Source: a virus
Reading direction: 5' to 3' (one strand)
DNA: 64,000 nucleotides
Virus record (IMG/VR): IMGVR_UViG_3300040801_001572
Location: 1-64,000 of that record
Positions 299 to 16,884 of the stretch are shown here, piece by piece. How positions within the stretch are numbered: position 1 is the stretch's first letter; every line of letters starts with the position of its first letter. The notes under the pieces are model-generated. The model saw only the letters and a list, made by a program, of their open reading frames with translations, made no database searches and was not told where the DNA came from. The position numbers and the translations under genes are program-made.

Positions 299-579
299 AG
301 GTCCAGTACGTCAACGACGCCACACCACGTAGCGATGGGAGATCGGGTAAGCCCACGGGCATTACTCTCTTCCAGACGTACACTGTGGTCGCTGTTGAGG
401 GCGACAAATATGTTCTGCTCAACGACGACTACAAGCTTTGTCGCTATTCGCAGGCAAGGTTCTTGGTCACGAGCACACGTAAGATCGAGCCCATACGCAA
501 GGCTTTCAATTCACTGACACATCCCTTGCGTATGGAAGTCAAGCGGCTGAGGCAGTTGGTCACCGAACTAAACGGTTGA
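295..579 (+). CDS. hypothetical early protein
   Basis: coupled ORF; its TGA stop lies within the next TTGACA box. Confidence 0.65.
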   Translation: MKVQYVNDATPRSDGRSGKPTGITLFQTYTVVAVEGDKYVLLNDDYKLCRYSQARFLVTSTRKIEPIRKAFNSLTHPLRMEVKRLRQLVTELNG

Positions 580-627
580 CATTTCCATTCAGTTGTCGTA
601 CTATATGCACAGTTAGGACAACAGGAG
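576..627 (+). promoter_or_regulatory. sigma70-type early promoter with CAGTTAGG leader
   Basis: TTGACA-17-TACTAT then cagttaggacaacaggag. Confidence 0.85.
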
Positions 628-635
628 TAACAGCT

Positions 636-1085
636 ATGGGCTGGTGGGATTACGGTATTATGGGCGGTGACACTCCGCTCGATATGCAGGCACGTTTCGA
701 CGAGAAGTTCGGCTTCGTAGACGAAGAGTACGATCCGGTAACGCCTGCAGTGTTGCCGACCGGTGCACAAGTCGAAGACTTCATGCGCAACGAGCAGCCG
801 GACTGGTGTTACAACCTGGGCTACGAAAATATCTGGCCACAGGTGATCGGTTACCTCGTTATCGACCATAAGCTCGAGATGACCGACGCTGTGCGAGCTG
901 CTGCCATCAAAGGTGCCCAGGACGAGATCGACTCGATCCAGAAAGACAACCTGGACGGCTGGAACTCACCCTGTGAACGTACCGAACGACTGAAGGAGTT
1001 CATCGCTGTAGTCGAGGTGTACGACGGTACCCAGGAAGCGCCCGAGAGCAAGGGCTTGTTCGAAGCAATGGCGGAGGCACTGTAA
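636..1085 (+). CDS. hypothetical acidic protein (MGWWDYGIMGGD...)
   Basis: GGAG SD before ATG 636; the track start at 576 lies in the promoter. Confidence 0.8.
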   Translation: MGWWDYGIMGGDTPLDMQARFDEKFGFVDEEYDPVTPAVLPTGAQVEDFMRNEQPDWCYNLGYENIWPQVIGYLVIDHKLEMTDAVRAAAIKGAQDEIDSIQKDNLDGWNSPCERTERLKEFIAVVEVYDGTQEAPESKGLFEAMAEAL

Positions 1086-1357
1086 TGGAACTCTCCAACA
1101 ATGCAATGATGGTCTTGGGAATCTATCTGGGCCACAAGTCACATGCTCGCCGATCAGAGTGCGAGCACGTAGGCTGCGATTACGATAGCGGTGTTGCTGA
1201 ACTTGCCAAAGCAGGTGTAATGCGAGGTGGCCGTATCAATCGCAAGGAAGGCTATGCTGTGTTCCACGAACGCTTCCCCGATCAACTCGGAAGTCAAACA
1301 CACCAGTATCGCCACAAGTTGGGATTTCCTTACCCGGGAGAAACACAAAGTCGATAA
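1085..1357 (+). CDS. hypothetical protein
   Basis: TAATG overlap with upstream gene. Confidence 0.65.
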   Translation: MELSNNAMMVLGIYLGHKSHARRSECEHVGCDYDSGVAELAKAGVMRGGRINRKEGYAVFHERFPDQLGSQTHQYRHKLGFPYPGETQSR

Positions 1358-1365
1358 GTACTAGC

Positions 1366-1611
1366 ATGAAGTATATCACGTATAAGAACGAAGACGGTCA
1401 CAAGACCATGGTTATCTTCTGCGTGACTGAGCAACATGCCCTTATCGCCCAACAGATGCACGTTACGCCGCTGAGTGCAGGATTCATTAACATCACTGCA
1501 GACTGTGGCCAGGTGTGCGTAGAGATCGAATGCTACGGTGAGTCAACAAGTCTTGGATTGACTCCAACCGAAGAAGACAGTATACTAGCTCGTAAATTGT
1601 TAGACCTCTAG
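1366..1611 (+). CDS. hypothetical protein, paralog of 2823-3116
   Basis: KYI...VIF...H...AGFI...CYGxSxSLG shared with 2823-3116. Confidence 0.8.
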   Translation: MKYITYKNEDGHKTMVIFCVTEQHALIAQQMHVTPLSAGFINITADCGQVCVEIECYGESTSLGLTPTEEDSILARKLLDL

Positions 1612-1623
1612 CAGGAGGATCAC

Positions 1624-1869
1624 ATGTTCAACACACCAATGCCCCAGGTACGGTTTCGTGCCGGCGACGATCGCACCCTGTACACCAATGTAAACTTTGC
1701 ACGTGACGTCGCACAGGGCCTGGCCAACACTTCCGGTGTGCCTGTTCCTATTCATCACGTAGTGAACGGCAAGCAAGGCATGATCCTGCACGATGTTCAT
1801 CCAGAGAAGGGCGAACAGAATGTGGTTAGCTTCTTTGGTCGAGTAGCGGAGAAACTGCGTCGTGGTTGA
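1624..1869 (+). CDS. hypothetical protein
   Basis: AGGAGG SD. Confidence 0.7.
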   Translation: MFNTPMPQVRFRAGDDRTLYTNVNFARDVAQGLANTSGVPVPIHHVVNGKQGMILHDVHPEKGEQNVVSFFGRVAEKLRRG

Positions 1870-2044
1870 GTTCGTTCGTTTCGATGCTGATCCAAAGCTC
1901 CACATGGAACGGCATGTGGTGGCCGTAGGCTGTACGTTCTGGCAGAAGCTATGGCTGATTGGGTTCAGGGGCTTCCAGCCTCATCCCTTTCTGGGTGCCA
2001 AAGGTCACCCGTTTAAGCAGTATCCGATCAAACAAAAAGGTTGA
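1862..2044 (+). CDS. hypothetical protein
   Basis: overlapping GTG start; stop inside TTGACA. Confidence 0.55.
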   Translation: MVEFVRFDADPKLHMERHVVAVGCTFWQKLWLIGFRGFQPHPFLGAKGHPFKQYPIKQKG

Positions 2045-2087
2045 CATTTCCAGCCAGACCAAATATCATATACTTGTTAGTTAGGAG
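2041..2087 (+). promoter_or_regulatory. sigma70-type early promoter
   Basis: TTGACA-17-TATCAT, ttagttaggag leader. Confidence 0.8.
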
Positions 2088-2100
2088 TTTGGAGAAGACC

Positions 2101-2376
2101 ATGTCACTAGATAGGATCATTGAGCGAGTTAACGCTCGTCGCCAATTCGAGAACGAGTTCTGCACTGGTGCTCGTCGCGAGATGATCGCTCACCCTCTGG
2201 AGTCGGACGACATTGAGTCGCTCTGCTGCCACATCGAGAGTGAGCTCAGTCCTGAGAATCTTCACTGCGACGGAGAAATTTCTCCTCGCGAAGCCAAGCA
2301 CAAAGCCGAAGCACTGCACCGCGCATACGACGAGCTGTGCCAGCGCTATGCTTGTGTGCGGGAGTTGTACGTATGA
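2101..2376 (+). CDS. hypothetical protein (LSPENLHCDGE motif)
   Basis: GGAG SD, ATG 2101 downstream of promoter. Confidence 0.75.
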   Translation: MSLDRIIERVNARRQFENEFCTGARREMIAHPLESDDIESLCCHIESELSPENLHCDGEISPREAKHKAEALHRAYDELCQRYACVRELYV

Positions 2377-2591
2377 CTGAGTATGGTATTGCGACGCCCA
2401 GCGCTCGTGTTAAGATGCAGGGCTTGAGCAAAGAGGAAGCTTTTGCCTACATCGAGACTGAGGGGCAAAGCGGTGAGTTCGTAATTCGCAAGTGCCCGCC
2501 GGGTATGGGTTATCCCAAGGACGAGTGGTATGCAACTGCTACTGGTCATACCCTGGGCCAGATACGGTACGCACTAACGCTGGAGAATTAA
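2373..2591 (+). CDS. hypothetical protein
   Basis: ATGA overlap at 2373. Confidence 0.65.
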   Translation: MTEYGIATPSARVKMQGLSKEEAFAYIETEGQSGEFVIRKCPPGMGYPKDEWYATATGHTLGQIRYALTLEN

Positions 2592-2592
2592 T

Positions 2593-2669
2593 GCCCTGGT
2601 AGCTCAGCTGGATAGAGTAGTGGCCTTCTAAGCCATCGGTCGGGGGTTCGAATCCCTCCCAGGGTGCCA
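2593..2669 (+). tRNA. tRNA-Arg(TCT)
   Basis: cloverleaf: GCCCTGG/CCAGGGT acceptor, GTGGC-cttctaa-GCCAT anticodon arm, GTTCGAAT T-loop, encoded CCA. Confidence 0.95.
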
Positions 2670-2822
2670 GTTAGAAGAGACCTCTCGGTGTATGCACACC
2701 GGCTGGAGCCAAAACTCGCATTATCAGTGTAGCTACCCGGGAAGGGTTATACTGATACTAAGGCCCGGTCAAGCGCAGACAAGATCTGTGAGAGAGGAGA
2801 TTCTTTACCAGAGAGGCAAGAC

Positions 2823-3116
2823 ATGAAAGACGTTAAGTACATTGCATTCGAGAACGAATTCGGCAACGACGATCTTGTGATCTTTTCGAACCAGGTTATC
2901 CATTCCGAAATGGCTCGCAATCGACGGATCTTCCGTGAAGTGACGGGTGCTGGATTCATTCGCATTGGTGCTGACACGCACGGTGTGACTGTTCACTGTT
3001 ATGGCAAGAGCGAAAGCCTAGGTGTCGAAAGTCGCGGAGAGATCGATTCCAACCTCGCCCGACGTGTACTGGATCTGCCCAGCAACGAGCGGAAAGTTTT
3101 TGAACAAATAGGTTGA
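2823..3116 (+). CDS. hypothetical protein, paralog of 1366-1611
   Basis: GAGG SD; shared motifs; stop inside TTGACA. Confidence 0.8.
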   Translation: MKDVKYIAFENEFGNDDLVIFSNQVIHSEMARNRRIFREVTGAGFIRIGADTHGVTVHCYGKSESLGVESRGEIDSNLARRVLDLPSNERKVFEQIG

Positions 3117-3141
3117 CAAGTGTTGGCAGCATTGCTATACT
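3113..3141 (+). promoter_or_regulatory. sigma70-type promoter for putative ncRNA
   Basis: TTGACA-17-TATACT, not followed by an SD and credible ORF. Confidence 0.85.
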
Positions 3142-3147
3142 ACACTT

Positions 3148-3589
3148 GCACGGCGCAGTAGCGACAATGGTAAGACTACGTTCGGTAGTCAGCAGGTTTA
3201 GCACAATACGCTAGGGCGAGGATAAGGGGCCCACCTGCAATGAACACAACTGTTAGGAGAGGGTACAGAATACCTTCCACTAGCGAGGTATAGCAGAGCA
3301 TACCGCGGAGCAATCCCCGGATAGCACTGTTCGGCAACAAGCCGGCGAGCCAGGCAAGATGGCCAGGCAAGCGCCTGCTACGAGACGAAAGTCTGCCGCG
3401 AAGCTAGTATCTCCTGTCCTAACTGAAGGCCTGCGGATGAGTTATGGGCCACGGTGAATCAACGCACCGACCCATGACAAAGACCTTCCTAACAGAAGTC
3501 CGCTTAATCCCCTACGCCGGGGCCAGCAGCCGACACCCTGTACGGCGCACCCGGCACCCTTTAGCCCGCCATATGGCGGGCTTTTTTTT
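3148..3589 (+). ncRNA. putative large structured non-coding RNA (family unrecognised)
   Basis: own promoter and terminator, no credible ORF; helices 3174/3185, 3192/3233, 3250/3486, 3291/3375, 3442/3471; GNRA loops at 3310 and 3387. Confidence 0.65.
3563..3589 (+). terminator. intrinsic terminator
   Basis: agcccgcc-atat-ggcgggct + T run. Confidence 0.9.
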
Positions 3590-3591
3590 GG

Positions 3592-3641
3592 TTGACAATA
3601 ATCTCCATCCAGCTTATACTGTGCACAGTTAGATAAGAGGA
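3592..3641 (+). promoter_or_regulatory. sigma70-type early promoter
   Basis: TTGACA-17-TATACT, cagttagataagagg. Confidence 0.85.
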
Positions 3642-3648
3642 CAGCACA

Positions 3649-3999
3649 ATGGCAACTGAAGTTTACTTCACTGCAAAACAATCATACAATCCTGTGGGTT
3701 CCAGTCACTGGTTTACTTTTCCCCAGGAACTGCAGGAGACTGTGGATCGTGTGGTGTTTATGCATACGGACTCGGAAGAGCCTGAGATCCGTGCGCTGGC
3801 AAACGATGTATACCAGGACGAGGATTCCGACTACAGTGACCGTATGTGGCTGCGTTGTGGAAGTCGACTGTACGTGCTGTATCGTCGCCAGGGCGAATAT
3901 CGTGTTGCCTCTGGGTTTGATCATTCGGGCGACGCTTCCGTTATGTGGCCCTTTGACAAGGACGAAATCATTGCACACTTTGCTGCATACGCGGAGTAA
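3649..3999 (+). CDS. hypothetical protein
   Basis: SD + promoter. Confidence 0.75.
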   Translation: MATEVYFTAKQSYNPVGSSHWFTFPQELQETVDRVVFMHTDSEEPEIRALANDVYQDEDSDYSDRMWLRCGSRLYVLYRRQGEYRVASGFDHSGDASVMWPFDKDEIIAHFAAYAE

Positions 4000-4002
4000 G
4001 CT

Positions 4003-4299
4003 ATGGTCGCAAACACACGAGTAACACTGCCGCAATGTCGTAGCTTGGACTACTGGCATAAAGAGTACACCAGCTCTGACGGTGTAACCAAGTACACGGT
4101 GCACCTCACACACGACGAGCGTCAGTTCTCCTGTGAGTGCAAAGGATTTCAGTATCGTGGCGACTGCAAGCATGTGAAGCAGGCAGCTCAGGACTACTGT
4201 GGTTGGTGTGCACTGTGGTGCGACGAGCCATACGAAGAGAGTTCCAAGAAATGTCCTCGCTGTGGGGACGAAGTTGATTTCAGAAATCATATGGTATAA
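4003..4299 (+). CDS. SWIM-type zinc-finger protein with C-terminal zinc ribbon
   Basis: FSCECKGF...CKH; CGWC...CPRC. Confidence 0.75.
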   Translation: MVANTRVTLPQCRSLDYWHKEYTSSDGVTKYTVHLTHDERQFSCECKGFQYRGDCKHVKQAAQDYCGWCALWCDEPYEESSKKCPRCGDEVDFRNHMV

Positions 4300-4301
4300 T
4301 C

Positions 4302-4511
4302 ATGAGCTATCCGAATTTCAAATATCTGGTCAAAGTGTTCCAGCCCGGCAACGACTGTGCTGTTGATCACTTCGATCAAGTGTTCCCTAACCCGGTGAGC
4401 AAAGGTGATACCGTTTGCTTTGGCGACGAAGCACTCGAAGTTGATCGTGTTGTTCACCACAACGAACGCGGTGCCACGTGGAGTGAAATCCACTTGACAG
4501 AACACAACTAA
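4302..4511 (+). CDS. hypothetical protein
   Basis: operonic ORF. Confidence 0.6.
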   Translation: MSYPNFKYLVKVFQPGNDCAVDHFDQVFPNPVSKGDTVCFGDEALEVDRVVHHNERGATWSEIHLTEHN

Positions 4512-4543
4512 TCTGTTACTATAAGTACAGTTAGGATTCGAGG
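4494..4543 (+). promoter_or_regulatory. sigma70-type early promoter
   Basis: TTGACA-17-TACTAT, cagttagga. Confidence 0.8.
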
Positions 4544-4551
4544 ATTATGTC

Positions 4552-4770
4552 ATGGCAAGTTTGAAGAAAGCTATCGAAGAAAAGTGCAAGGATTGCATTT
4601 ACGACGACACCAAAAACTCTGGGCTAGGCAGCTGGCGCCAGCAAGTTGAGGCTTGCCCTTGCACCGATTGTCCGCTTTGGCCAGTTCGCCCGGTCACTGT
4701 GAAGACACGGAACGCCAACCGAAAGTCAAAGGGCGGTGATGACAACATTCCTACCAAGGAGGTAGCATGA
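4552..4770 (+). CDS. small Cys-rich protein
   Basis: CKDC...CPCTDCPLW; SD GAGG. Confidence 0.75.
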   Translation: MASLKKAIEEKCKDCIYDDTKNSGLGSWRQQVEACPCTDCPLWPVRPVTVKTRNANRKSKGGDDNIPTKEVA

Positions 4771-5105
4771 GCAACTCAGTTCGAGCCATTATCGTATTCG
4801 CTTTTGCGATGACACTGTTTACCATCGCCAATGTGGCCACTGCTGATTCCATCGACGACTTTCAGCAGTCGCTGCGAACCTTCGATACAGAGGTACTCCG
4901 CGAAGTAAAACAACCGGTCCGTCACGCGGCATCAGTGAGTGCACTGGTGGTATCACTACAGACGGACCTCCTGGGGAACGACAATGTTCAAGCTCCGTTT
5001 GATATCCGCGAGGTATCACAGCATACTGGTCGAGTTAGCCGCCAACGAGACAATCTGGCAACTGCCGCTCGCCGTGTTGATGTGTTCTTGAGATCCATTA
5101 GATAG
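4767..5105 (+). CDS. hypothetical exported protein
   Basis: N-terminal signal-peptide-like segment; AGGAGG SD. Confidence 0.7.
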   Translation: MSNSVRAIIVFAFAMTLFTIANVATADSIDDFQQSLRTFDTEVLREVKQPVRHAASVSALVVSLQTDLLGNDNVQAPFDIREVSQHTGRVSRQRDNLATAARRVDVFLRSIR

Positions 5106-5189
5106 TTGGATCCATTCTTCTGTTGCAATCTGTCACGGATGGCAATATCCTTTAACTGCACTTTGAACTAACCCCAAGGAGGAGCCTAT

Positions 5190-5552
5190 ATGGCAGGTGC
5201 AAAGACCAACACGAAGAGACGTGTTACCAAGAAGGAGCAGGCTTTCAAGATCTTCGACGCGAAACTGAAGATGCGAGCAGCCGGCAAGTTCGACAGCAAC
5301 AAGGCATTCCGCAGAGCCTGCCTGGATGAGATGGTCAAGAAGATCGGCGTGAGCATTCCGTCTGCTGCTACCATGTACAACCAGGCCAAGCAGGCTGCAG
5401 AAGCTGACAACCCGAGCCTGGGCCTGGGTCGCGATCCCAAGAAGGTTGTGGTCAAGAAGCCCAAGGCAAAGGCAAAGGCAAAGGCAAAGCCCGCTGCACA
5501 GCCGGCTGAAGCTGAGACCCCTGCGGAGAGCAACGAAGAAGCAACTGCTTAA
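5190..5552 (+). CDS. small basic putative DNA-binding protein
   Basis: K/A-rich; AATMYN matches AATLYN of 11680-12039; (AAGGCA)x4 repeat. Confidence 0.75.
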   Translation: MAGAKTNTKRRVTKKEQAFKIFDAKLKMRAAGKFDSNKAFRRACLDEMVKKIGVSIPSAATMYNQAKQAAEADNPSLGLGRDPKKVVVKKPKAKAKAKAKPAAQPAEAETPAESNEEATA

Positions 5553-5570
5553 TCGCTGCCCTGGGAGAAT

Positions 5571-5601
5571 AAAAAGCCCGCCCTGTGGTGGGCTTTTTTT
5601 T
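5571..5601 (+). terminator. intrinsic terminator
   Basis: aagcccgcc-ctgt-ggtgggctt + T run. Confidence 0.85.
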
Positions 5602-5603
5602 GG

Positions 5604-5650
5604 TTGACATTTATATCCATCCATCTTATAATGTGTTTGTTAGCTAGGAG
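5604..5650 (+). promoter_or_regulatory. sigma70-type early promoter
   Basis: TTGACA-17-TATAAT, ttagctaggag. Confidence 0.85.
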
Positions 5651-5657
5651 TTTGGAT

Positions 5658-5978
5658 ATGAAAATGTTCGAAATTGACAAAGGCACCCCTGCATTTCGCA
5701 TCACTCCGAAAGGTGAGATCATCACCTGGATTGTGCGCAAGGACCTTTGCTACGGTGACATGAACATTGCTAGCATGCCTTACCGGTATGCTAACAAAGG
5801 CTCGGCCGATACGCTCGATTACTTGGGCGACCTGGGCATGACACTGGATGCCATCAAATGTGTACTCAACAAGCTGGATCGTTTCTCGCTGTTCTGGGAA
5901 GAAGGTACGCAGACAGGCGAACCCCACTTCTTACTAGTAGACGATCGCTATTGCCGGCTCATGGGAGAAGACCAATGA
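5658..5978 (+). CDS. hypothetical protein
   Basis: SD; ATG 5658. Confidence 0.7.
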   Translation: MKMFEIDKGTPAFRITPKGEIITWIVRKDLCYGDMNIASMPYRYANKGSADTLDYLGDLGMTLDAIKCVLNKLDRFSLFWEEGTQTGEPHFLLVDDRYCRLMGEDQ

Positions 5979-6196
5979 CTCAAGTACCAAACTTTCCAGA
6001 TTCTGGAATCCCCTCAAACGAGCCGGACTACAGCTTCTTCGAGGAACAGTTCTGGCAGATGATGCGGGCACTGGAAGAGAGGCATTGCCAGCGAGAAGAA
6101 GTGCTCAACCGTGACACTGTACGTGCTGCGTACAATGCCTGGAACCAACGCTTCGGCACTGACATGGTGCCCAGGTTTGACGAGGAGAAGTGGTAA
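5975..6196 (+). CDS. hypothetical protein
   Basis: ATGA overlap. Confidence 0.65.
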   Translation: MTQVPNFPDSGIPSNEPDYSFFEEQFWQMMRALEERHCQREEVLNRDTVRAAYNAWNQRFGTDMVPRFDEEKW

Positions 6197-6618
6197 TGAA
6201 AATCGAATATTCATTCTGGTCGATGCTCACTGCTCGACGCAAGTGGTTCCGCAGTCGGATCAGCGATACGCCGATTCGCAACGTGTGGCTGAGCCTGTTC
6301 GACGAAGGTAAGAAGCTGCTGCAGAGCCTGGGTTTCTTTTTGCTCTGCCTGCTGGTTTGTCTTCTCAGCCCGCTGATTCCGCTGTGGCCATACTTCGCTG
6401 CATTCTGCAGTACCTGCATGAACTATCGCAGGGTGCCCACTGTGTGTGAGAAAGACTATGCCTTCGTGCAGAGCATCGATCGGGAGAACGTGTACAAGAT
6501 CAGGAACAACCTCAAGTTGTTGAACACCAAGAAGGAACAATACGGCGTGGACAACATCACGGCTCGTGAATACTGCGAGCAGGCGCTGTCGGTGCAAAAA
6601 CTCAAAGGAGTCGAGTAA
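6196..6618 (+). CDS. hypothetical membrane protein
   Basis: central hydrophobic segment; TAATG overlap. Confidence 0.65.
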   Translation: MKIEYSFWSMLTARRKWFRSRISDTPIRNVWLSLFDEGKKLLQSLGFFLLCLLVCLLSPLIPLWPYFAAFCSTCMNYRRVPTVCEKDYAFVQSIDRENVYKIRNNLKLLNTKKEQYGVDNITAREYCEQALSVQKLKGVE

Positions 6619-6884
6619 TGAAGCTGGTAGACTACTTCGTGATAATCGCACTGTGGTTTATGTACACGGTCAGCGGCATCTCAGCTGTCATGTATGGCCT
6701 GTATGCTGTCGCTGGATTCCTCAACAACCAAGGAGTCTTTGTGTTTACTGATGCCCATGTGTCTGTAATCACATACGCCCTGCTGTTTGCGATGACCAGC
6801 GGTTCGTGCCGGGCTACTCGAATCTCGCTGACTGCTGTCACTGAAGCACACAAGCCGGTACAGCCCCAGACCAGTACTGGTTGA
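6618..6884 (+). CDS. hypothetical membrane protein
   Basis: two hydrophobic segments; stop inside TTGACA. Confidence 0.65.
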   Translation: MKLVDYFVIIALWFMYTVSGISAVMYGLYAVAGFLNNQGVFVFTDAHVSVITYALLFAMTSGSCRATRISLTAVTEAHKPVQPQTSTG

Positions 6885-6927
6885 CAATTATCTCCAACCT
6901 GCTATAATACCTGCATAGTTAGGAGAT
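6881..6927 (+). promoter_or_regulatory. sigma70-type early promoter
   Basis: TTGACA-16-TATAAT, tagttaggagat. Confidence 0.8.
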
Positions 6928-6934
6928 CCAAGCA

Positions 6935-7453
6935 ATGGTCAAAGTAGTACTCACATCAACACCTTGCACTGACGTCGAGACGATCACTGTCAAGGTGCCC
7001 AAAGGCAAGAAGCCGACAGTTGCACTGCTCAAGGATGCAGTGAGCAAGGATAAGTGGAAAGAGATCCACGCTGCATCTGACGAGCTGCGTAAAGCTGGCA
7101 ATACACTTGCCGCTGCGTTTGCTGAGGTTCACAACGGCAAGAAGTACGACGACGAACTCAGCGGTGAGCTCACTGTTGCCCTGGACGAGATGATTGCTCC
7201 TCCGGTGCCCAAAGTGAAAGTCAAAGTCGGCAAGAAGAAGGACGGCACTACTGGTCCTGTTGCCGCTGACAAGAAGCCTGCTGCTACTAAGCCCAAAGGC
7301 AAGAGTGTAGCTGCGCAGGTTCGCGAGATGATCAAGGACAACCCCAAGCTGGGTATCCCCGAACTGATCGAACTGGTAGTCAAAGAAGGACTGCTGCCCG
7401 AAGGACGCGCCAAGGTGTATGTGCGCGAGAACGTGAAGAGGGTACGAGGATGA
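6935..7453 (+). CDS. basic protein with C-terminal helical (HTH-like) domain
   Basis: C-terminus resembles the tail of the SprT-like protein. Confidence 0.75.
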   Translation: MVKVVLTSTPCTDVETITVKVPKGKKPTVALLKDAVSKDKWKEIHAASDELRKAGNTLAAAFAEVHNGKKYDDELSGELTVALDEMIAPPVPKVKVKVGKKKDGTTGPVAADKKPAATKPKGKSVAAQVREMIKDNPKLGIPELIELVVKEGLLPEGRAKVYVRENVKRVRG

Positions 7454-7743
7454 GAAAGACCTGCCACGGTTGCCCTCACTTGCAGGTGCATCGTTTCGCC
7501 TTCATGGGTGTTATGCCCAGTTGTGGCGCTGTCGAAGAACCTTTCATTGTCCCCCATCGCAGCGAACTACAGTCGATGGCCGAAGCTGCATCCGACCAGG
7601 AGTACGAAGTTACGTACTGGCGAGTGCCGGAGGATTGTCCGCTGAGTGCATCTGAGGTGCACAAGAGCAAAGACAAGGCGCCTGTCAGTGATTGGCAATT
7701 GGTCACACTGCGTCTAGGTGACGTAGAGGAGTACACACCGTGA
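7450..7743 (+). CDS. small Cys-rich protein
   Basis: CHGCPH...C...CPL; ATGA overlap. Confidence 0.7.
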   Translation: MRKTCHGCPHLQVHRFAFMGVMPSCGAVEEPFIVPHRSELQSMAEAASDQEYEVTYWRVPEDCPLSASEVHKSKDKAPVSDWQLVTLRLGDVEEYTP

Positions 7744-7907
7744 AGTGCTATGTTGTGCAGCTGGCCGTGCAAGGAACGACCGAAGAACGAGTCGAGGCAA
7801 ACTCCGAAGCTGAAGCCAAGCAATTGGCCATCGAAGAAGCACGGCTTTCTCTTGATCACGCCAATGCCCGTGTCATCGACATTCAAGTCGAAGGAGACGA
7901 CGAATGA
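7740..7907 (+). CDS. hypothetical protein (55 aa, not in ORF track)
   Basis: GTGA/ATGA overlaps on both sides; VKCYVVQL...EGDDE. Confidence 0.65.
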   Translation: MKCYVVQLAVQGTTEERVEANSEAEAKQLAIEEARLSLDHANARVIDIQVEGDDE

Positions 7908-8125
7908 AGCGCTACTGGGACAAACCGAAGTACTTTACCTGGGAAACACGATGGTTCCTGCTCCAGATCGGAATCTCCGGTGACTGGCTGTGGTCGAACA
8001 CACAGACTGCTACTGCATTCGAGAAACGTACTCACTACTTCACGATCAGTAAAGTATCGCGTGGTGACCTCACTGCTGTGAGCGTGATCATTCTTCCAGT
8101 GAGCATCATGTTTGGCCTAGTTTAA
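7904..8125 (+). CDS. hypothetical protein
   Basis: GGAG SD, ATGA overlap. Confidence 0.65.
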   Translation: MKRYWDKPKYFTWETRWFLLQIGISGDWLWSNTQTATAFEKRTHYFTISKVSRGDLTAVSVIILPVSIMFGLV

Positions 8126-8127
8126 GG

Positions 8128-8180
8128 TTGACATCTCCATCCAACTGTCGTACACTGTGCACAGTTAGATAAGAGGACAG
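8128..8180 (+). promoter_or_regulatory. sigma70-type early promoter
   Basis: TTGACA-17-TACACT; 27 nt identical to the 3592 unit. Confidence 0.85.
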
Positions 8181-8184
8181 ACTC

Positions 8185-8787
8185 ATGCGCAACACGCTCG
8201 CTATTGAACTAATTACCAACGTGATGCAGGAGATACCTGCTGACCGTGCCCAGTCACTGCTGCAGGCCACTGTGAACTTCCTCGCTGTAGCAGAGAAAGA
8301 GAACCTTGCACATTTGCTGGTGCAGGTAGAAAGCCTGGAAGATGCATTCAGCGACATTCTCATCAACCGTGACAAGCTGCTGTCCGAGAAGGCGCCGGTG
8401 GTAGACATGCGTGGCTTCCCGCACATTGGCATGCCTGGAACCGGCAAGCATGAGCGTGTCACCGGGCTGTTCAAGACTGCTGGCATCGCTTCGCTGATCA
8501 CGAATTTCTACGACCTTGCCAGCGAGAACGACTCTACGGAGTACACCCTGGACGACTTCAACACTCGCATCGGTGATCAGCTGCGCAGTGCCGCTGAAGA
8601 TCTGGAAGACGGTGGCGGAGCGAGTTTCGATATGACTGACGTACATTTTGACGTCGAGGACGAGCTGGTACGCTCGGAACTTAACCAGGCCATGCACCGT
8701 GTTACCCACGCGATCATGATTGCCCTCCGCGAACGGGACGAAAGGAACATCCTGGACGCCCTTAACATGATGGGCGAGTCCGAATAA
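8185..8787 (+). CDS. hypothetical protein
   Basis: SD + promoter, 200 aa. Confidence 0.8.
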   Translation: MRNTLAIELITNVMQEIPADRAQSLLQATVNFLAVAEKENLAHLLVQVESLEDAFSDILINRDKLLSEKAPVVDMRGFPHIGMPGTGKHERVTGLFKTAGIASLITNFYDLASENDSTEYTLDDFNTRIGDQLRSAAEDLEDGGGASFDMTDVHFDVEDELVRSELNQAMHRVTHAIMIALRERDERNILDALNMMGESE

Positions 8788-8790
8788 CGG

Positions 8791-8841
8791 TTGACATTTC
8801 CATCCAACTGTCATACTATATACGCAGTTAGTTAGGAGATT
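8791..8841 (+). promoter_or_regulatory. sigma70-type early promoter
   Basis: TTGACA-17-TACTAT, cagttagttaggagat. Confidence 0.85.
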
Positions 8842-8846
8842 GCAAC

Positions 8847-9332
8847 ATGTTTGAGATTACCCAAGACCCCAAAGCTGCCGGACAACACTGGCCCGACGTT
8901 TCATACCGCGGCCACAACCTGTTCGACATCTACTGCGACGATAAAGAGATCGGAGACCTGATCAGTGATCAAGGTAACGGCCTTGACATTGACTGTCAGG
9001 AAAGCTACCTGGGTTACATTCCCGACGAGGACTGCTTCCTGTCTGGCTGGGACTGCTGGTACGACGATTCCAACGACTGCGATCACTGCTGGGGCGAAAC
9101 TGTCGACGAGGACACCGGTGAAGAGTGTACCCACTGTGATGGCAACGGTTACCTCGAAAGCGAGGACAGCGAGAACTTCAAAGGCTGCATGGCCAAGTTC
9201 GTGATAGACGACACAGGCAAGCTTTGTGTGCTCGAGATCATCCAGACCCACGGGCGCATGGTGTACTCGGACGATGTGCTAGCAGCCATGCACACTCGAT
9301 ACCCATCGTTGGTTGACCTTCGGTTGGATTGA
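8847..9332 (+). CDS. acidic protein with DnaJ-like CxxCxG zinc finger
   Basis: CDHCWG...CTHCDGNG. Confidence 0.75.
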   Translation: MFEITQDPKAAGQHWPDVSYRGHNLFDIYCDDKEIGDLISDQGNGLDIDCQESYLGYIPDEDCFLSGWDCWYDDSNDCDHCWGETVDEDTGEECTHCDGNGYLESEDSENFKGCMAKFVIDDTGKLCVLEIIQTHGRMVYSDDVLAAMHTRYPSLVDLRLD

Positions 9333-9367
9333 TCGTATACTGTGTGGGTTAGTTAGGACAACGGAGC
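9313..9367 (+). promoter_or_regulatory. sigma70-type early promoter
   Basis: TTGACC-17-TATACT, agttaggacaacggag. Confidence 0.75.
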
Positions 9368-9373
9368 AACACA

Positions 9374-9703
9374 ATGAACTACCTTCCTGTTAATGTATAC
9401 GGTGTACAGTCGGACAACACCTTTCTGTGCAGCGACAGCTCAAACTGTGGTGTGACCCTTACCCATCGTGACAAGCTGGTCGTGCCGCATGTCAGGGGCC
9501 AGTACACGGAGCAAGACGTCAAGGAACGTGGCATGGTCATCCTGGAACTGATGGAACCTGCTTTCCCTGGTTGCCCTCCGCGCTTCAAGCCTCAGGGCAT
9601 CGCAGGCCACGCAATGTTTGGTGGTCGCTACGTGATGGGTGACAGCCGGTTCACTGAGGCGTACAGTAAGCAGCCTGTCCAGGTACACGATCGGGTGGAG
9701 TAA
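9374..9703 (+). CDS. hypothetical protein
   Basis: SD + promoter; MFGG...DSRF...HDR motif. Confidence 0.75.
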   Translation: MNYLPVNVYGVQSDNTFLCSDSSNCGVTLTHRDKLVVPHVRGQYTEQDVKERGMVILELMEPAFPGCPPRFKPQGIAGHAMFGGRYVMGDSRFTEAYSKQPVQVHDRVE

Positions 9704-9805
9704 TTCACCCGGTCCAATTTGGTCAGAGAAATTTCTCAACCAGAATTGGTCACCCGGCCTAAACGGCTTAGACAAATAACCCAGGCAAGATAGGAGGCAT
9801 ACACA

Positions 9806-10018
9806 ATGATTTGGTACACTGTTATCATGCTGTGGTATGCTGTTGCCTGGGGATTCTTCCGTGCTATTGCTTGCGTATGTGCTGCTGCTGTGCTTACGTA
9901 CATGTATCCTGGTGACCACTGGCAAGTGTCAATGTACCTGTGGACTGTGCTTACTGTGCTGTGTGTAACGCCTAGTTTGCTTGCTGCTGTGGCTGCAGGA
10001 GTCTACATTGGTAAATAG
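9806..10018 (+). CDS. small membrane protein
   Basis: AGGAGG SD; hydrophobic. Confidence 0.7.
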   Translation: MIWYTVIMLWYAVAWGFFRAIACVCAAAVLTYMYPGDHWQVSMYLWTVLTVLCVTPSLLAAVAAGVYIGK

Positions 10019-10023
10019 CTAGT

Positions 10024-10413
10024 ATGAGCATTTCACTACTAGCTAACGTCCAAGAAACTGTCAACGCAATTGATCAAGGTCTTCGCCCAGTCGTAGACGA
10101 CGGACGCGGAGATATCTACGTACTTAATACCTCCCGCAAACAGTTCGGCAACTTAGTGTTCACGCAGTTCGATCGTAACACACTGTTTCCTATTGCTAGC
10201 TTCACAGTGAGATATGGAACTCAGCATGTAATCAACGAAGTCCTATTCGGGGCTTTCTCTAGCAGGCGACAACTCGAAGAGATCATCGACATGGAGATCC
10301 CTGGTCAGGTCCGAGAAGAGTTCGACCCACGTATCATCCCTGGTTGCACCCCTACCTTCCCAACTGAGGTTTCGGATACACAAGGTACCCCAAAGTTCAT
10401 ACAAGGTACTTGA
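10024..10413 (+). CDS. hypothetical protein
   Basis: operonic; stop inside TTGACA. Confidence 0.7.
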   Translation: MSISLLANVQETVNAIDQGLRPVVDDGRGDIYVLNTSRKQFGNLVFTQFDRNTLFPIASFTVRYGTQHVINEVLFGAFSSRRQLEEIIDMEIPGQVREEFDPRIIPGCTPTFPTEVSDTQGTPKFIQGT

Positions 10414-10460
10414 CATTTCCATCCAATGTGCTATAATGTGGCACAGTTAGATAGGAGATG
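10410..10460 (+). promoter_or_regulatory. sigma70-type early promoter
   Basis: TTGACA-16-TATAAT, cagttagataggagat. Confidence 0.85.
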
Positions 10461-10465
10461 CAGAC

Positions 10466-10777
10466 ATGATACAAGTAACGCTGATAGACCAGACGATTGC
10501 GAAGAAGCGCAGTGACGTTACCTTCACTGAGATCCTCAAGTACAAGTCACACAAGCTGCGCGTTCGTATCCGTAGCAATAGCTACGACTTCCAAAACTCT
10601 GCAGTCATTGACCGGTGGGATGGCGCCAAGTGGAACGTGGTATACACTATCCCCTACACTGCGATGACCACTCCGGACGGACTGGCAACTGTACGTGAGC
10701 CTGCAACCATGCTGGGCAAATACTTCCTGGATGATCGCGAGAAGCTGGTCAAAATGGCCCTGAAAATTATTTCCTAA
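10466..10777 (+). CDS. hypothetical protein
   Basis: SD + promoter. Confidence 0.75.
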   Translation: MIQVTLIDQTIAKKRSDVTFTEILKYKSHKLRVRIRSNSYDFQNSAVIDRWDGAKWNVVYTIPYTAMTTPDGLATVREPATMLGKYFLDDREKLVKMALKIIS

Positions 10778-10856
10778 AAGGGTTGACTTTCAATCCTAGT
10801 GAAGGCATAATGTGTTTGTTGGCTGTTAGGAGCCAGCGACACACAGGAGAAAGAAC

Positions 10857-11165
10857 ATGTTGCAAGAAATTCGCGTACAGATCAACGAAGCTGGTGACTA
10901 CTTTACCACTACGCCGTTCCAGCTGAGCCAGTGGCGCACTGGACTGAAGCTGGAGCACGAGACGGGCATGTCACTGTCACGTGGCCAGAAGGTATCAACG
11001 CACCTGCGCAAGCTGTTTGGCTGGAAGCGTTCAGTCAAGATCAGCACCATGTACAATGCGGTATGCCAGATCCAGAAGGACGTTGACGAGTCGCTGGGCC
11101 TGGAGCCGCGTGAGTTCCCCAAGCTGGGCCAGTACTGGAAAGACAAGCAAGAGAGCGCCGCTTAG
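10857..11165 (+). CDS. hypothetical protein
   Basis: promoter TTGACT-17-CATAAT at 10783; AGGAG SD. Confidence 0.75.
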   Translation: MLQEIRVQINEAGDYFTTTPFQLSQWRTGLKLEHETGMSLSRGQKVSTHLRKLFGWKRSVKISTMYNAVCQIQKDVDESLGLEPREFPKLGQYWKDKQESAA

Positions 11166-11193
11166 GCGCTCCACTCCCCAGGAGGATTCCAAA

Positions 11194-11496
11194 ATGGAAA
11201 TGGATTCACGAGACATCGGTCTGATGATCGTTGGTGTGCAAGAAGGCGTCTCAGTAACTGTGTGGCGACCTGGTACTAGCACTGTGCTGATCAAGGACCC
11301 TGTGACCTGGGTGGACCTGGACTGCTTCTCGGTTGACACGGAGATGACTCCGGACGAGATGATTCGCTACGTTGGCGAACGCATCCAGGAAGCCGATGAC
11401 CTGTGCGACGATGGTCAGCCCACCGAGTACGAAGAGTGGCAAGACTTCCACGGTGGTGACGATTGGGACCACGGCCAGTTCAACGACGGTTGCTGA
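11194..11496 (+). CDS. hypothetical acidic protein
   Basis: AGGAGG SD before ATG 11194; DGQPTEYEEWQDF. Confidence 0.7.
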   Translation: MEMDSRDIGLMIVGVQEGVSVTVWRPGTSTVLIKDPVTWVDLDCFSVDTEMTPDEMIRYVGERIQEADDLCDDGQPTEYEEWQDFHGGDDWDHGQFNDGC

Positions 11497-11679
11497 GGGG
11501 TTGACTTTTGGATGGATTAGTGCTAAAGGATTGGCTGGAAAATAATTTAAATTTCTGGTTGACGAAAGGCACAAGTTTCCATATAATTGTTTTTGAAAGT
11601 TAGGCATACACTGCTTTCAGGGCGTTGCGCTAGGCCCATACTAAACTAGACGCACTGACATATATCAGAGGAGATCACT

Positions 11680-12039
11680 ATGTCAAAGGCAAAAACCAAG
11701 CGCGAGATCGCTAACGGTGTTTTCAACAAGGCTCTGCCCACCCGCGAGAAAGTCGGTGATCGCAAGTTTCGCCAGAACGTCCTGGTAGCGATCGAGAAGC
11801 GCACTGGCGCCACTCGTCCGCAGGCTGCTACGCTGTACAACTTCGCCAAGAAGACTGCTGTTGCTGCCGGCCTGACCCCCGACTTCAGCCGCTCTGCCAA
11901 CACTGCCAATGTACCCCAGCCCGCCGAAGGCGACAACTGGAAGGCCGTGGACAAGGAGTCCGGCGAGATCCTGGGATACGGTCCGAGCCGCGCCAAGACC
12001 CGCGCTGCCTTCGAAGGTGCAACCGTCAGCAAGATCTAA
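11680..12039 (+). CDS. small basic putative DNA-binding protein, related to 5190-5552
   Basis: promoter TTGACG-17-TATAAT at 11559; AATLYN. Confidence 0.8.
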   Translation: MSKAKTKREIANGVFNKALPTREKVGDRKFRQNVLVAIEKRTGATRPQAATLYNFAKKTAVAAGLTPDFSRSANTANVPQPAEGDNWKAVDKESGEILGYGPSRAKTRAAFEGATVSKI

Positions 12040-12063
12040 CGCTGTCGGCCATCCAGGTCTTAC

Positions 12064-12087
12064 AGGGCTCTTCGGGGCCCTTTTTTT
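12064..12087 (+). terminator. intrinsic terminator
   Basis: agggctc-ttcg-gggccct + T run. Confidence 0.85.
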
Positions 12088-12203
12088 ATGGCCCCACTTG
12101 GTTGACATTCCATTCAAAAGATAGTAAGCATGGTTGGAAATTAATGGTTGACTTTCAACCTGCTGAATGTATACTAGTGGACAGTTAGGTAGGAGATGCA
12201 GAC

Positions 12204-12425
12204 ATGAGTTTAGACCTCGTTATTAAGTACAAAGCGCACAACGAACGCATCACGCAGATTCGTGACCTTGCTGCTGAAGCTGTGTTGCTTGAAGAAGCTG
12301 CTATACAAGCTGAGCGCAAGTTCGACCACGAGAAGGCGGAAGAGCTGCGCCACGACAAGCGCAATGCACAGAGCTTGATCGGTATGCTGGTCATTAACTC
12401 ACTCAAGGAACAAGGAGAGCTGTAA
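12204..12425 (+). CDS. hypothetical coiled-coil protein
   Basis: promoter at 12148; cagttaggtaggagat. Confidence 0.7.
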   Translation: MSLDLVIKYKAHNERITQIRDLAAEAVLLEEAAIQAERKFDHEKAEELRHDKRNAQSLIGMLVINSLKEQGEL

Positions 12426-12682
12426 TGGGCGCTGACACGTTCACAGCTACCGAAGCGGAAGTCGAGAAAGCTCGCATCGGGATCGAGATGCAGGCTCAGG
12501 CCGCTGGGTTGGATTTCGAAGACCCCAAGGTACGCCGGTTCCTGGACCAGATGATCGAGACCACCGCTGCCCACTTGGCCTGTGAGCGGTTCCAGCAAGA
12601 TGTGATCCATCGGGTCACTGCAGAAGGACACTGGTCACCCGATGGCTGCCAACACGTACACAAGCCCGAGGAGGAAGTCTAA
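12425..12682 (+). CDS. hypothetical protein
   Basis: TAATG overlap. Confidence 0.7.
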   Translation: MGADTFTATEAEVEKARIGIEMQAQAAGLDFEDPKVRRFLDQMIETTAAHLACERFQQDVIHRVTAEGHWSPDGCQHVHKPEEEV

Positions 12683-12846
12683 TGTATTTCGCAGTCTTCC
12701 TCACAGCGGTACTGATGGCGTCCGGGTTCAAACGTTTGCCCGATCAACCGGCCCTTGTTATCGCGGTTTCTATCATCTTCCTAGCCATGTGCCGGTCGGA
12801 GTATCTGAAAGATAAGAAACGGCGTGAGATTGAAACTAGTGGTTGA
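12682..12846 (+). CDS. small membrane protein (54 aa)
   Basis: GGAGG SD; stop inside TTGACA. Confidence 0.6.
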   Translation: MYFAVFLTAVLMASGFKRLPDQPALVIAVSIIFLAMCRSEYLKDKKRREIETSG

Positions 12847-12901
12847 CATTCCATCCAACTGTGCTATACTAGCGGACAGTTAGGAAACGAGGAGAACTGC
12901 A

Positions 12902-13132
12902 ATGGCAACTAACATGGCAACTGGTGAAGAGATGTTTGCCGCTGGCATGATGAATCTCGGAGGGTCTGGCTGCGGTACCTACGAGTATTTCTGGAGGCCT
13001 GGAACTACCACAGTGTACATGCGCAACATTGACACCGATGACATGCGCGAGTGGGGAGAGTTTGACACTGTGCCCGAGGATGCCGAGGAAGCCGAGGTAC
13101 TCATAGAATATATGGAAGGGGACGAATGGTAA
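12902..13132 (+). CDS. hypothetical acidic protein
   Basis: promoter at 12843; WRPGT motif shared with 11194-11496. Confidence 0.7.
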   Translation: MATNMATGEEMFAAGMMNLGGSGCGTYEYFWRPGTTTVYMRNIDTDDMREWGEFDTVPEDAEEAEVLIEYMEGDEW

Positions 13133-13293
13133 TGGAAAAGTCTACGAAGGTACGTTACTCCACTCGTAAGTATGACGGCGATGACCAGTATAGCTGGGCA
13201 GTCTTCGCCAGCAACCAAACCCACCCCGTGGTAACGGGCTGCTCTAGATCTGAAGCGCAGTACCACAAGAAAAAGCTCGAAAAGAAAGGTTGA
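13132..13293 (+). CDS. hypothetical protein (53 aa)
   Basis: RKYDGDDQYSWAVF; TAATG overlap; stop inside TTGACA. Confidence 0.65.
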   Translation: MEKSTKVRYSTRKYDGDDQYSWAVFASNQTHPVVTGCSRSEAQYHKKKLEKKG

Positions 13294-13346
13294 CATTTCC
13301 AACCAAGACGCTATACTAGTGGACAGTTAGGAAAGGAGCACGGAAC

Positions 13347-13775
13347 ATGAGCAACGAAGTCATCGAGCACATCAAGCAGATCAACGAAGAGAGCCGCAAG
13401 CGCATGGCCGACAACCCCAACCTGTTCATTGGTCTCCTCACTGAGGACCCCAACCACTGGGAAGAGTACAAGACCGTTGAAGAGTTCGAGGTGGCCATGG
13501 CCAAGGAGAGCTTCATTAACGTGTTCAAGAGCTACGAGGGCATCAAGCCTCGCTGGGAAGACTTCACCCACGAAGATGGTACTCCGATGACTTCCAAGGA
13601 GATCAACAAGATGACCTCCGACTTCATCGAGCGGGAGGAGAAGTGGGCACGGGAAGAGGCCGAGCGTGAAGAACGCGAAGAGCGCGAGCGTAAGGCCCGT
13701 GTAGCCAAGCAGGCTCGTGAGTGCACCCCTACACTGGGTGACGTGTTCGGTGACGTGCTGAGAGGTGCACTGTGA
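13347..13775 (+). CDS. hypothetical protein
   Basis: promoter at 13290; cagttaggaaaggag. Confidence 0.8.
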   Translation: MSNEVIEHIKQINEESRKRMADNPNLFIGLLTEDPNHWEEYKTVEEFEVAMAKESFINVFKSYEGIKPRWEDFTHEDGTPMTSKEINKMTSDFIEREEKWAREEAEREEREERERKARVAKQARECTPTLGDVFGDVLRGAL

Positions 13776-14005
13776 AGACTGTAGAGGGTGTCATTGGACT
13801 GAAGGTAGCCAACGGCAGTATGTCCGTTCAGGAAGCCGACAGGATGCTGCGGCACTATCGATCAGAGCTGGCGTTCATCCAAGCTGGCAAGGACGATACC
13901 GAGATCCCCAAGTTCCCCTGGGGACTAGCATGGGCAATCACTATACCTTGGTTCGTGTTCGGTGCAGTTCACATCTTCTACTTAGTAGCGGAGTTAGTAT
14001 CATGA
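13772..14005 (+). CDS. small membrane protein
   Basis: GTGA overlap; C-terminal TM segment. Confidence 0.65.
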   Translation: MKTVEGVIGLKVANGSMSVQEADRMLRHYRSELAFIQAGKDDTEIPKFPWGLAWAITIPWFVFGAVHIFYLVAELVS

Positions 14006-14385
14006 CCATATCCACAAAGTTTGGTAGCCGCTGGTACGAGTTCCCGAATCACAGTCAAGTCCAAGATGCATACGTGCTCTGGGGCGATGGCTGGGAGGAC
14101 GAGGAAGGTGACCAGGAGGCTTTCGAGAACGAAATGACTGCTCGAGGTATTGACTGGATCTTCGATGAGAGTGCCTTGGTGGATTCCTATGTCGACGAAG
14201 CACTGGAGGAATCGGAACTCGGGCAGCATTGCCGCTACATTGAAAGCCAGTTTGAAGGTCTGGCCCAGAGCGAAGACTATCCGATGATGCTCCAGGTGCG
14301 AGACTCCGAAGGTGGTCAGACCAACTGGCTGAATATCACGCCTCGCCAGGCCCAAAAGATCAAACAGATCCTCCGAGACGAGTAA
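14002..14385 (+). CDS. hypothetical acidic protein
   Basis: ATGA overlap at 14002. Confidence 0.7.
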   Translation: MTISTKFGSRWYEFPNHSQVQDAYVLWGDGWEDEEGDQEAFENEMTARGIDWIFDESALVDSYVDEALEESELGQHCRYIESQFEGLAQSEDYPMMLQVRDSEGGQTNWLNITPRQAQKIKQILRDE

Positions 14386-14460
14386 CCACTGTATAAATGT
14401 ACAGTTGACAAAAGTTTCCATCCTGCTATACTAGTGGACAGTTAGGTAGGAGATGAAACA

Positions 14461-14910
14461 ATGGCAAAGCAGAAATTGGTAACGCGCCAGCAGGTCATTG
14501 CAATCGTGAACGCCAAGTGGGAAGCGGCACAGAAAGGTGACACCGAAGCACGCCGCTTCCTGGAACAGTACATCGGCAAGGCTCTGATGGTACTGTTGGA
14601 TCGTCAGACGCAAGACGAGCAACGCGACACCACTGTGAAGTACCGCAACGAAATGGGCTTCACTGGCGCTGATGGACGTAGTGGCACTATTGCTGCTCGC
14701 ACCTACCTCAAGTACAAGGGCTTCCCGGAAGACTGGATGCTGAAGCAATGGGTCAAGCCCAATCGCAGAGGCGTGCCGCGTATCGCCAAGTACTGGAGAC
14801 AGCTGAACGAAGCTGCTATCCAGAAGGCCCGAAAGGCAGCCTACCAACAACTGAAACTGAACACTGGTTGCACTGCAGAAGACTATCGCACTGCAACCCA
14901 CGGAGCGTAA
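14461..14910 (+). CDS. hypothetical protein (QTxDE...NxxGF...D motif)
   Basis: promoter at 14405; SD. Confidence 0.8.
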   Translation: MAKQKLVTRQQVIAIVNAKWEAAQKGDTEARRFLEQYIGKALMVLLDRQTQDEQRDTTVKYRNEMGFTGADGRSGTIAARTYLKYKGFPEDWMLKQWVKPNRRGVPRIAKYWRQLNEAAIQKARKAAYQQLKLNTGCTAEDYRTATHGA

Positions 14911-14911
14911 C

Positions 14912-15097: not shown

Positions 15098-15098
15098 A

Positions 15099-16846: not shown

Positions 16847-16884
16847 GGGACTCCAACCTCCCCCGACCGAACATCTCCTGACCT

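Follow-up and report, generated by a model that had tools for sequence, protein, structure and literature searches.

Computational evidence that a phage non-coding RNA carries a stretch complementary to the ribosome-binding leader shared by about 16 early genes

Many early genes of an uncultured jumbo phage are preceded by the same short leader, and a non-coding unit lying among these genes contains what appears to be its complement. This raised the question of whether the unit encodes an RNA that acts in trans on the early mRNAs as a group, or whether the match has a more trivial origin. The original prediction, made from sequence alone, was that the segment 3409-3425 of a large non-coding RNA is antisense to the shared leader plus SD, that the RNA can adopt two exclusive folds that hide or expose this segment, and that one trans-acting, possibly switchable RNA controls the translation or stability of a dozen or more early mRNAs through a common 5' tag, with the reservation that part of the match is simply the SD. 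We found that the observation itself is real and lies well beyond chance, whereas the interpretation was only partly supported by the analysis described below.

The window analysed is the first 64,000 nucleotides of a 114,654-nt IMG/VR virus record (IMGVR_UViG_3300040801_001572, handled here as G000), derived from a microbial-mat metagenome and rated 31% complete by CheckV, so that the full genome would be roughly 370 kb. The record has T4-like baseplate genes and a 3488-aa structural protein (32242-42708, - strand), which ends in a BD-FAE / alpha-beta hydrolase domain and carries a CBM5/12 module. Its baseplate wedge protein is 43% identical to that of the Pseudomonas jumbo phage PA5oct, the closest cultured relative, and 42-66% identical to those of many environmental contigs; the phage is a jumbo myophage, a distant PA5oct relative. 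DNA contigs of the source sample showed a second strain with clustered substitutions at 7354-8682 and 10233, while none were listed inside the RNA gene, where the listed DNA contig covers 2874-3438 without differences.

Positions 576-17290 of the + strand hold a dense array of sigma70-type promoters, with 31 promoter-like sites in 16 kb in comparison to 10.9 +/- 3.3 in shuffled sequences. About 16 of these promoters are followed, 5-8 nt after the -10 box, by a shared leader whose core is CAGTTAGG (or TGTTAG), the SD AGGAG following the core either directly (contiguous type) or after 2-6 nt (split type), and the start codon following the SD by 6-10 nt. Every leader string and coordinate of the original prediction was present, give or take one base, the leader given at 8826 starting at 8825. 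The leaders, with the predicted energy of their duplex with the RNA, were as follows.

610-635, + strand: early leader, split type, candidate target (-23.8 kcal/mol)
2075-2100, + strand: early leader, contiguous type (-21.3 kcal/mol)
3626-3648, + strand: early leader, weak match (-14.7 kcal/mol)
4528-4551, + strand: early leader (-19.5 kcal/mol)
5638-5657, + strand: early leader, weak match (-14.1 kcal/mol)
6914-6934, + strand: early leader, weak match (-12.1 kcal/mol)
8162-8184, + strand: early leader, weak match (-14.9 kcal/mol)
8825-8846, + strand: early leader (-21.1 kcal/mol)
9347-9373, + strand: early leader (-24.6 kcal/mol)
10443-10465, + strand: early leader, 18-bp duplex (-27.1 kcal/mol)
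12181-12203, + strand: early leader, best duplex, 18 bp with one bulge, covering the SD (-29.1 kcal/mol)
12876-12901, + strand: early leader (-23.1 kcal/mol)
13323-13346, + strand: early leader (-22.0 kcal/mol)
14438-14460, + strand: early leader (-25.4 kcal/mol)
15694-15736, + strand: early leader of the SprT-like gene, contiguous type, also matching the second anti-leader described below (-23.2 kcal/mol, and -14.4 kcal/mol with the loop of that anti-leader)
17267-17294, + strand: early leader with a tandem motif (-23.5 kcal/mol)

To determine whether the putative RNA constitutes a gene-like unit, we examined its signals, coding potential, family membership and folding. The unit has a near-consensus promoter and a strong intrinsic terminator, and the only + strand ORF in it (3444-3632) runs through the terminator and the next promoter, so that no credible ORF was found. 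Searches with Rfam covariance models, both at the gathering threshold and at E up to 10, returned only the tRNA and sub-threshold, terminator-driven hits, with no match to GOLLD, ROOL, HEARO, OLE, raiA, 6S or RNase P, and ARAGORN found no tmRNA. The 443-nt transcript inferred from promoter and terminator folds much better than shuffled sequences (-171.8 in comparison to -145.4 +/- 6.3 kcal/mol, z -4.22), with several hairpins capped by stable tetraloops. The parts of the unit were as follows.

3113-3141, + strand: sigma70-type promoter of the non-coding RNA, with a consensus -35, a 17-nt spacer and an extended -10 (11 of 12 hexamer matches, with TG before the -10)
3148-3590, + strand: non-coding RNA of about 443 nt, with ends inferred from promoter and terminator rather than mapped
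3156-3166, + strand: degenerate leader-like segment near the 5' end of the RNA, nine bases in, predicted partner of 3415-3425 (helix P1)
3250-3261, + strand: internal sense copy of the leader, which can pair with either anti-leader
3285-3291, + strand: SD-like segment, predicted partner of the anti-SD half 3407-3413 (helix P5)
3407-3425, + strand: anti-leader 1, complementary to the shared leader core plus SD of the early mRNAs
3486-3495, + strand: anti-leader 2, TTCCTAACAG, a short complement of the contiguous leader type with its centre 3489-3494 in a predicted hairpin loop
3563-3590, + strand: intrinsic terminator with an 8-bp G+C-rich stem, a 4-nt loop and T8

Contigs of two metatranscriptome runs from the source sample cover 3269-3438 and 3293-3446, and in the 12 kb compared only three places were covered by RNA-library contigs, of which this one appeared in both runs and at the highest depth. 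This is weak evidence that the RNA is abundant. Assembled contigs give no strand, ends or level, and DNA carry-over cannot be formally excluded; both the RNA contigs and a DNA contig stop at 3438, so that this stop is an assembly break and not an RNA end. The other two places, 5235-5401 and 11742-11919, lie in two early genes (5190-5552 and 11680-12039) noted in the original prediction as sharing a helical domain, in which Pfam found nothing. The junction of the terminator and the next promoter at 3563-3597 is duplicated at 5575-5609 with 91% identity.

To further demonstrate how the complementarity compares with chance, we carried out a series of tests against shuffled sequences and against the rest of the record. 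The complementary stretch, 3407-3425, is slightly longer than originally described, and with the leaders at 12181, 10443 and 14438 it forms 17-18 bp with a single bulge, covering the core and the whole SD, at -25 to -29 kcal/mol, while across all 16 leaders the range is -12 to -29 kcal/mol with a median near -22, the four weak leaders falling at -12 to -15 kcal/mol. The heptamer core of the leader occurs 27 times in comparison to 9.1 +/- 3.2 in shuffles, a three-fold over-representation. The leader-plus-SD pattern occurs outside promoter units only six times in 229 kb of both strands, and two of these six lie inside the 443-nt RNA, one sense (3250) and one antisense. Of 516 windows of 443 nt on both strands of the record, only the five that are literal reverse complements of leaders pair better with the leaders than the RNA window does (-25.2 for the RNA window in comparison to -17.5 +/- 2.2 kcal/mol). 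For 150 dinucleotide shuffles of the RNA the value was -16.4 +/- 1.0 in comparison to -23.1 kcal/mol observed (z -6.95), with none of the shuffles as good. The 16 leaders pair at -22.7 kcal/mol on average in comparison to -12.0 for 25 other ribosome-binding regions of the phage (Mann-Whitney p 4.7e-7), showing that the SD alone does not explain the match. Anti-leader 2 forms 9-10 bp with the leader at 15700, and the 7-mer shared by the two anti-leaders occurs 12 times on the + strand of the record, two of them in the RNA (P 7e-4). The layout also mirrors the targets, in that the split leaders are matched by the split anti-leader 1 and the contiguous leaders by anti-leader 2. Two further copies of the reverse complement of the leader core lie at 18761-18769 and 18959-18968, in the ORF-free gap at the right end of the early region, one of them inside a promoter-like site.

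We next asked whether the anti-leader would be accessible in the free RNA. In the predicted thermodynamic ensemble 3407-3425 is mostly paired intramolecularly, 3415-3425 with 3156-3166 (pair probabilities 0.82-0.97, but about 0.5 at U3159, which alternates between A3421 and A3422; duplex -18.9 kcal/mol with two bulges) and 3407-3413 with 3285-3291 (0.65-0.80), and together these two helices close the main domain. The computed cost of opening 3409-3425 is 5.2 kcal/mol, and the loop 3489-3494 of anti-leader 2 is predicted to be unpaired with a probability of 0.97-0.99. The alternative pairings proposed for the switch do exist with nearly equal energies, 3250-3261 pairing with 3406-3424 at -18.5 kcal/mol and with 3482-3496 at -17.8 kcal/mol, the latter being a pseudoknot relative to the first helix. 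However, the ensemble does not favour the hide-or-expose switch (pair probability about 0.02), and in the MFE structure 3250-3261 forms a local hairpin, although the switch cannot be excluded. The RNA thus contains two leader-like and two anti-leader-like segments, and the anti-leader can be read either as a structural strand or as a masked effector. The second reading is favoured by the fact that the strand is a perfect complement of the consensus leader (11 contiguous bp plus the SD) but pairs with its own 5' partner only through two bulges, and by the fact that 10 of the 16 leaders pair more stably (-21 to -29 kcal/mol) than the internal competitors (-18.5 to -18.9 kcal/mol), while the computed opening cost is only 5.2 kcal/mol.

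Covariation of leader and antisense segment in related phages had been named beforehand as a check, but no homologue of the RNA was found in which to count it. Blastn against 50,697 phage records returned none, blastn in 20 related IMG/VR records gave only 14-17-nt chance hits, and a covariance model of the core 3285-3413 found none in 42 related records, including four complete genomes and PA5oct, although this was a single-sequence model with low sensitivity. The flanking proteins have no relatives in IMG/VR; the downstream protein has none among 5.8 billion proteins, the upstream protein has one relative at 72% identity on a 1-kb Logan contig, and a metagenome scan with a profile of the upstream protein found nothing. 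The 17-mer gave 58 matches in public metagenomes, all in unrelated contexts and in the number expected by chance for its length.

The relatives did show that dense sigma70 arrays with a lineage-specific shared leader are a family trait, with 13-45 sigma70 promoters per 10-35 kb in the related records G010 (L094-L095) and L134-L153, one promoter per small early gene being a family-wide design. Most of them use A/C-rich leaders quite unlike the present one, and in the fragments available for these relatives we saw no long anti-leader outside promoter units, but only short chance matches or promoter-spacer matches. In seven of these records (L134 5947-6990, L135 1028-1910, L139 4380-5270, L144 3593-4450, L149 3613-4620, L152 4389-5310 and L153 6843-7650) a conserved early gene for a lysine/alanine-rich protein of about 140 aa has an unusual hairpin-containing leader and is followed by a conserved non-coding element of about 60-100 nt before a conserved 72-aa gene. 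We also considered that promoter spacers might generally be complementary to their own leaders, so that read-through transcripts would hide the SD, as at some T4 genes. A few striking cases exist, with pairing up to -19 kcal/mol, at 15660-15736 of the window and at 6473-6540, 5575-5640 and 3392-3450 of the related record G012 (L103), but the effect was not significant across promoters in any genome tested (p 0.08-0.7).

The informative case was G003 (L212), a complete 328-kb genome whose wedge protein is 47% identical and the only one of 50 related records that uses the same leader, with 13 copies of the 9-mer, all forward. In G003 the motif lies at a variable distance (7-20 nt) from the -10 box but at a fixed distance from the start codon, indicating that it is an RBS-linked leader element rather than strictly a 5' tag at the transcription start, as had been originally proposed. 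The only + strand copy of the 11-nt anti-leader TTCCTAACTGT in the 328 kb of G003 (0.08 expected) lies at 9960-9970, inside the early array. The surrounding unit (9741-10027) comprises an early promoter, a 45-codon membrane-peptide ORF and a non-coding tail with the order hairpin, seed, hairpin and terminator with a U7 tail, making it a candidate 3'-UTR sRNA against the G003 early leaders. This is the classical layout of a base-pairing sRNA. The seed is predicted to be 0.87-0.99 unpaired, it is the best pairing site within that tail for 17 of 18 G003 leaders (mean -15.9 in comparison to -9.4 +/- 0.5 kcal/mol in 300 shuffles, z -13), and its window is the best of 1093 + strand windows. The seed shares its first eight bases with anti-leader 2, and the layout also tracks the lineage, since G003 has contiguous leaders and a contiguous seed while G000 has mostly split leaders and a split anti-leader 1. 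Homology between the G003 tail and the 3' domain of the G000 RNA is not demonstrable, so that G003 was treated as an independent analogue. G003 also holds a second ORF-free unit of about 85 nt from promoter to terminator (4740-5034), which contains an anti-SD-like run and is followed by five copies of a roughly 17-nt iteron-like repeat.

Based on these results, the reading we consider most likely, although with a confidence of only about even odds, is that the unit 3113-3590 is an early non-coding RNA transcribed by the host RNA polymerase, whose segment 3407-3425 base-pairs in trans with the leader-plus-SD element shared by about 16 early mRNAs, possibly helped by the loop-displayed 3486-3495. 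In this view, pairing would cover the SD to within a few bases of the start codon, block 30S binding and probably expose the mRNAs to decay, so that the whole early regulon would be turned down together as the stable RNA accumulates, as an RNA timer. The anti-leader would probably be masked in the free RNA by 3156-3166 and 3285-3291, which pair less well than most real leaders do, so that targets could displace them. What the analysis itself establishes is limited to the sequences, their statistics, the predicted energies, the presence of part of the RNA in RNA libraries and the parallel in G003, whereas the transcript ends, pairing in vivo, trans action, repression as its direction, and displacement of the internal mask are inferred. 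A further-reaching reading, which we regard as possible but rather unlikely on present evidence, is that a lineage of environmental jumbo phages tags its early genes with a common RBS-linked leader and encodes a master antisense RNA against that tag, in G000 as a large, self-masked RNA whose internal leader mimics make it a strand-displacement switch and in G003 as a minimal sRNA in a 3' tail, either of which would shut off or meter the whole early regulon post-transcriptionally as an RNA counterpart of T4 RegB.

Among the alternatives, the most serious, though still unlikely, is that 3407-3425 is purely structural, being the continuous strand of two stacked helices (P1 and P5) that close the main domain of a large structured RNA with some other function, and resembling an anti-leader only because the 5' part of the RNA descends from a promoter-leader module. 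This reading is supported by the predicted pairing, which alone could be the purpose of the segment, and by the recognisable degenerate leader at the 5' end, while the stable UUCG, GCAA and GAAA-type hairpins and the size of 443 nt, far larger than a base-pairing sRNA needs to be, suggest a folded RNA machine rather than a simple antisense RNA. On the other hand, selection for an internal helix alone would predict a better match to the 5' partner than to the consensus leader, which is the opposite of what was observed, and neither the second anti-leader in a loop nor the independent, unpaired anti-leader in G003 is explained. A decoy or sponge, which would display leader-like (3156-3166, 3250-3261) and anti-SD-like elements to titrate a leader-recognising factor such as a phage or host RNA-binding protein, a nuclease or the 30S subunit without pairing with the mRNAs, appears less likely still. 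It would fit the two sense copies and the conservation of the leader between G000 and G003 at a fixed distance from the start codon, which implies a conserved trans factor, but no leader-binding protein was identified, Pfam gave no informative match among the ten early proteins scanned, GGA motifs are not enriched by inspection of the RNA (about 5 seen, about 7 expected), and the G003 tail carries only the antisense element.

Coincidence, or a decaying relic of an inverted leader module, is similarly improbable; the search was post hoc, part of the match is anti-SD and the 17-mer is found in metagenomes at chance frequency, but the chance tests within the genome are strong, and the expectation that a relative with the same leader has an anti-leader in early non-coding RNA was borne out. 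A gene on the minus strand at 3407-3425 was rejected because there is no promoter upstream and no start codon at a workable distance, and a relic would have had to lose everything except the 19 nt. A DNA-level signal, in which the leader core is an operator for a phage DNA-binding protein that shuts off early promoters and the copies in the RNA gene are extra binding sites, was also judged improbable. The motif lies at +1 to +8 of most early promoters in G000, some promoters have a short dyad around the -10 box, and three copies lie within 250 bp in the RNA gene, but spacer-leader dyads are not significant overall, and the position of the motif in G003 and the location of all 13 G003 copies and all G000 leader copies on the coding strand fit an RNA or RBS element rather than an operator. 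In addition, a leader-like copy at 2668 directly follows the tRNA with no promoter in front. This copy overlaps the encoded CCA end of tRNA-Arg(TCT) (region 2593-2830), and the 164 nt up to the next gene fold well (z -3.0), the only ORF there (2692-2826) giving an unconvincing peptide; this could be a processed 5' end that mimics a leader or a second small structured RNA.

How jumbo phages that rely on host RNA polymerase end their early programme is largely unknown, as is the role of their abundant early non-coding RNAs. A single RNA aimed at a leader shared by a dozen or more independently promoted early mRNAs would be a simple post-transcriptional shut-off or timing device, would explain why the leader is conserved between phages whose structural proteins are only about 47% identical, and would suggest a function for at least one orphan phage ncRNA, while the leader and anti-leader pair would form a compact, portable regulatory module. 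In the literature searched we found no description of a phage RNA aimed at a leader shared by its own early regulon, the closest concepts being multi-target sRNAs such as GcvB, the P1 c4 and P4 CI antisense RNAs and, as a functional analogue, T4 RegB.

In comparison to known systems, the large ornate RNAs of phages and bacteria (GOLLD, ROOL) and 6S RNA are similar in large size, location near a tRNA gene and many stable hairpins, but no covariance model matched and the rod-with-bubble shape of 6S RNA is absent. In PA5oct, RNA-seq found the ORF-free ncRNA001 and ncRNA002 (236 and 451 nt) in the corresponding early or terminal-repeat region, each 1.2-5% of phage reads (PMC7318152), which sets a precedent for abundant early non-coding RNAs of similar size and good folding (z -4.05) in this phage group. 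However, the pairwise alignment with ncRNA002 was not convincing, the covariance model found nothing in the whole PA5oct record, PA5oct shows no shared leader of this type, and its ncRNAs show no global complementarity to early RBS regions (z -0.5 and -0.8), so that such complementarity is not a general property of the ncRNAs of the group. Multi-target trans-acting sRNAs such as GcvB, which pairs with C/A-rich enhancers of many mRNAs, similarly have their own promoter and intrinsic terminator and a short region complementary to a motif shared by many mRNAs at or next to the SD, with a block of translation as the expected outcome; the present RNA differs in being phage-encoded and aimed at the phage's own early regulon, in its ornate structure and size of about 443 nt, outside the 50-300 nt typical of such sRNAs, and in the predicted internal masking of its main anti-leader. 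The P1/P7 c4 RNA and P4 CI RNA are phage-encoded RNAs that pair with short repeated target boxes in phage early transcripts and shut expression down, but they are short processed RNAs of temperate elements that act on the one operon from which they are cut, while the G000 RNA has its own promoter and terminator and about 16 independently promoted candidate targets in a virulent-type jumbo phage, and no sequence relation was seen; the G003 tail might fit that type if it is processed. A functional analogue is the T4 RegB endoribonuclease (reviewed in PMC3014915). RegB globally inactivates early mRNAs through a short element at their SD, in a distantly T4-like myophage, but it is a protein nuclease that cuts within the SD, whereas the effector proposed here is an RNA acting by pairing. 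Finally, 3'-UTR-derived sRNAs have the order seed, hairpin and terminator, which is exactly the layout of the putative G003 element after its 45-codon ORF, and the 3' domain of the G000 RNA has the same order of anti-leader 2, hairpin and terminator, there as a module within a much larger RNA.
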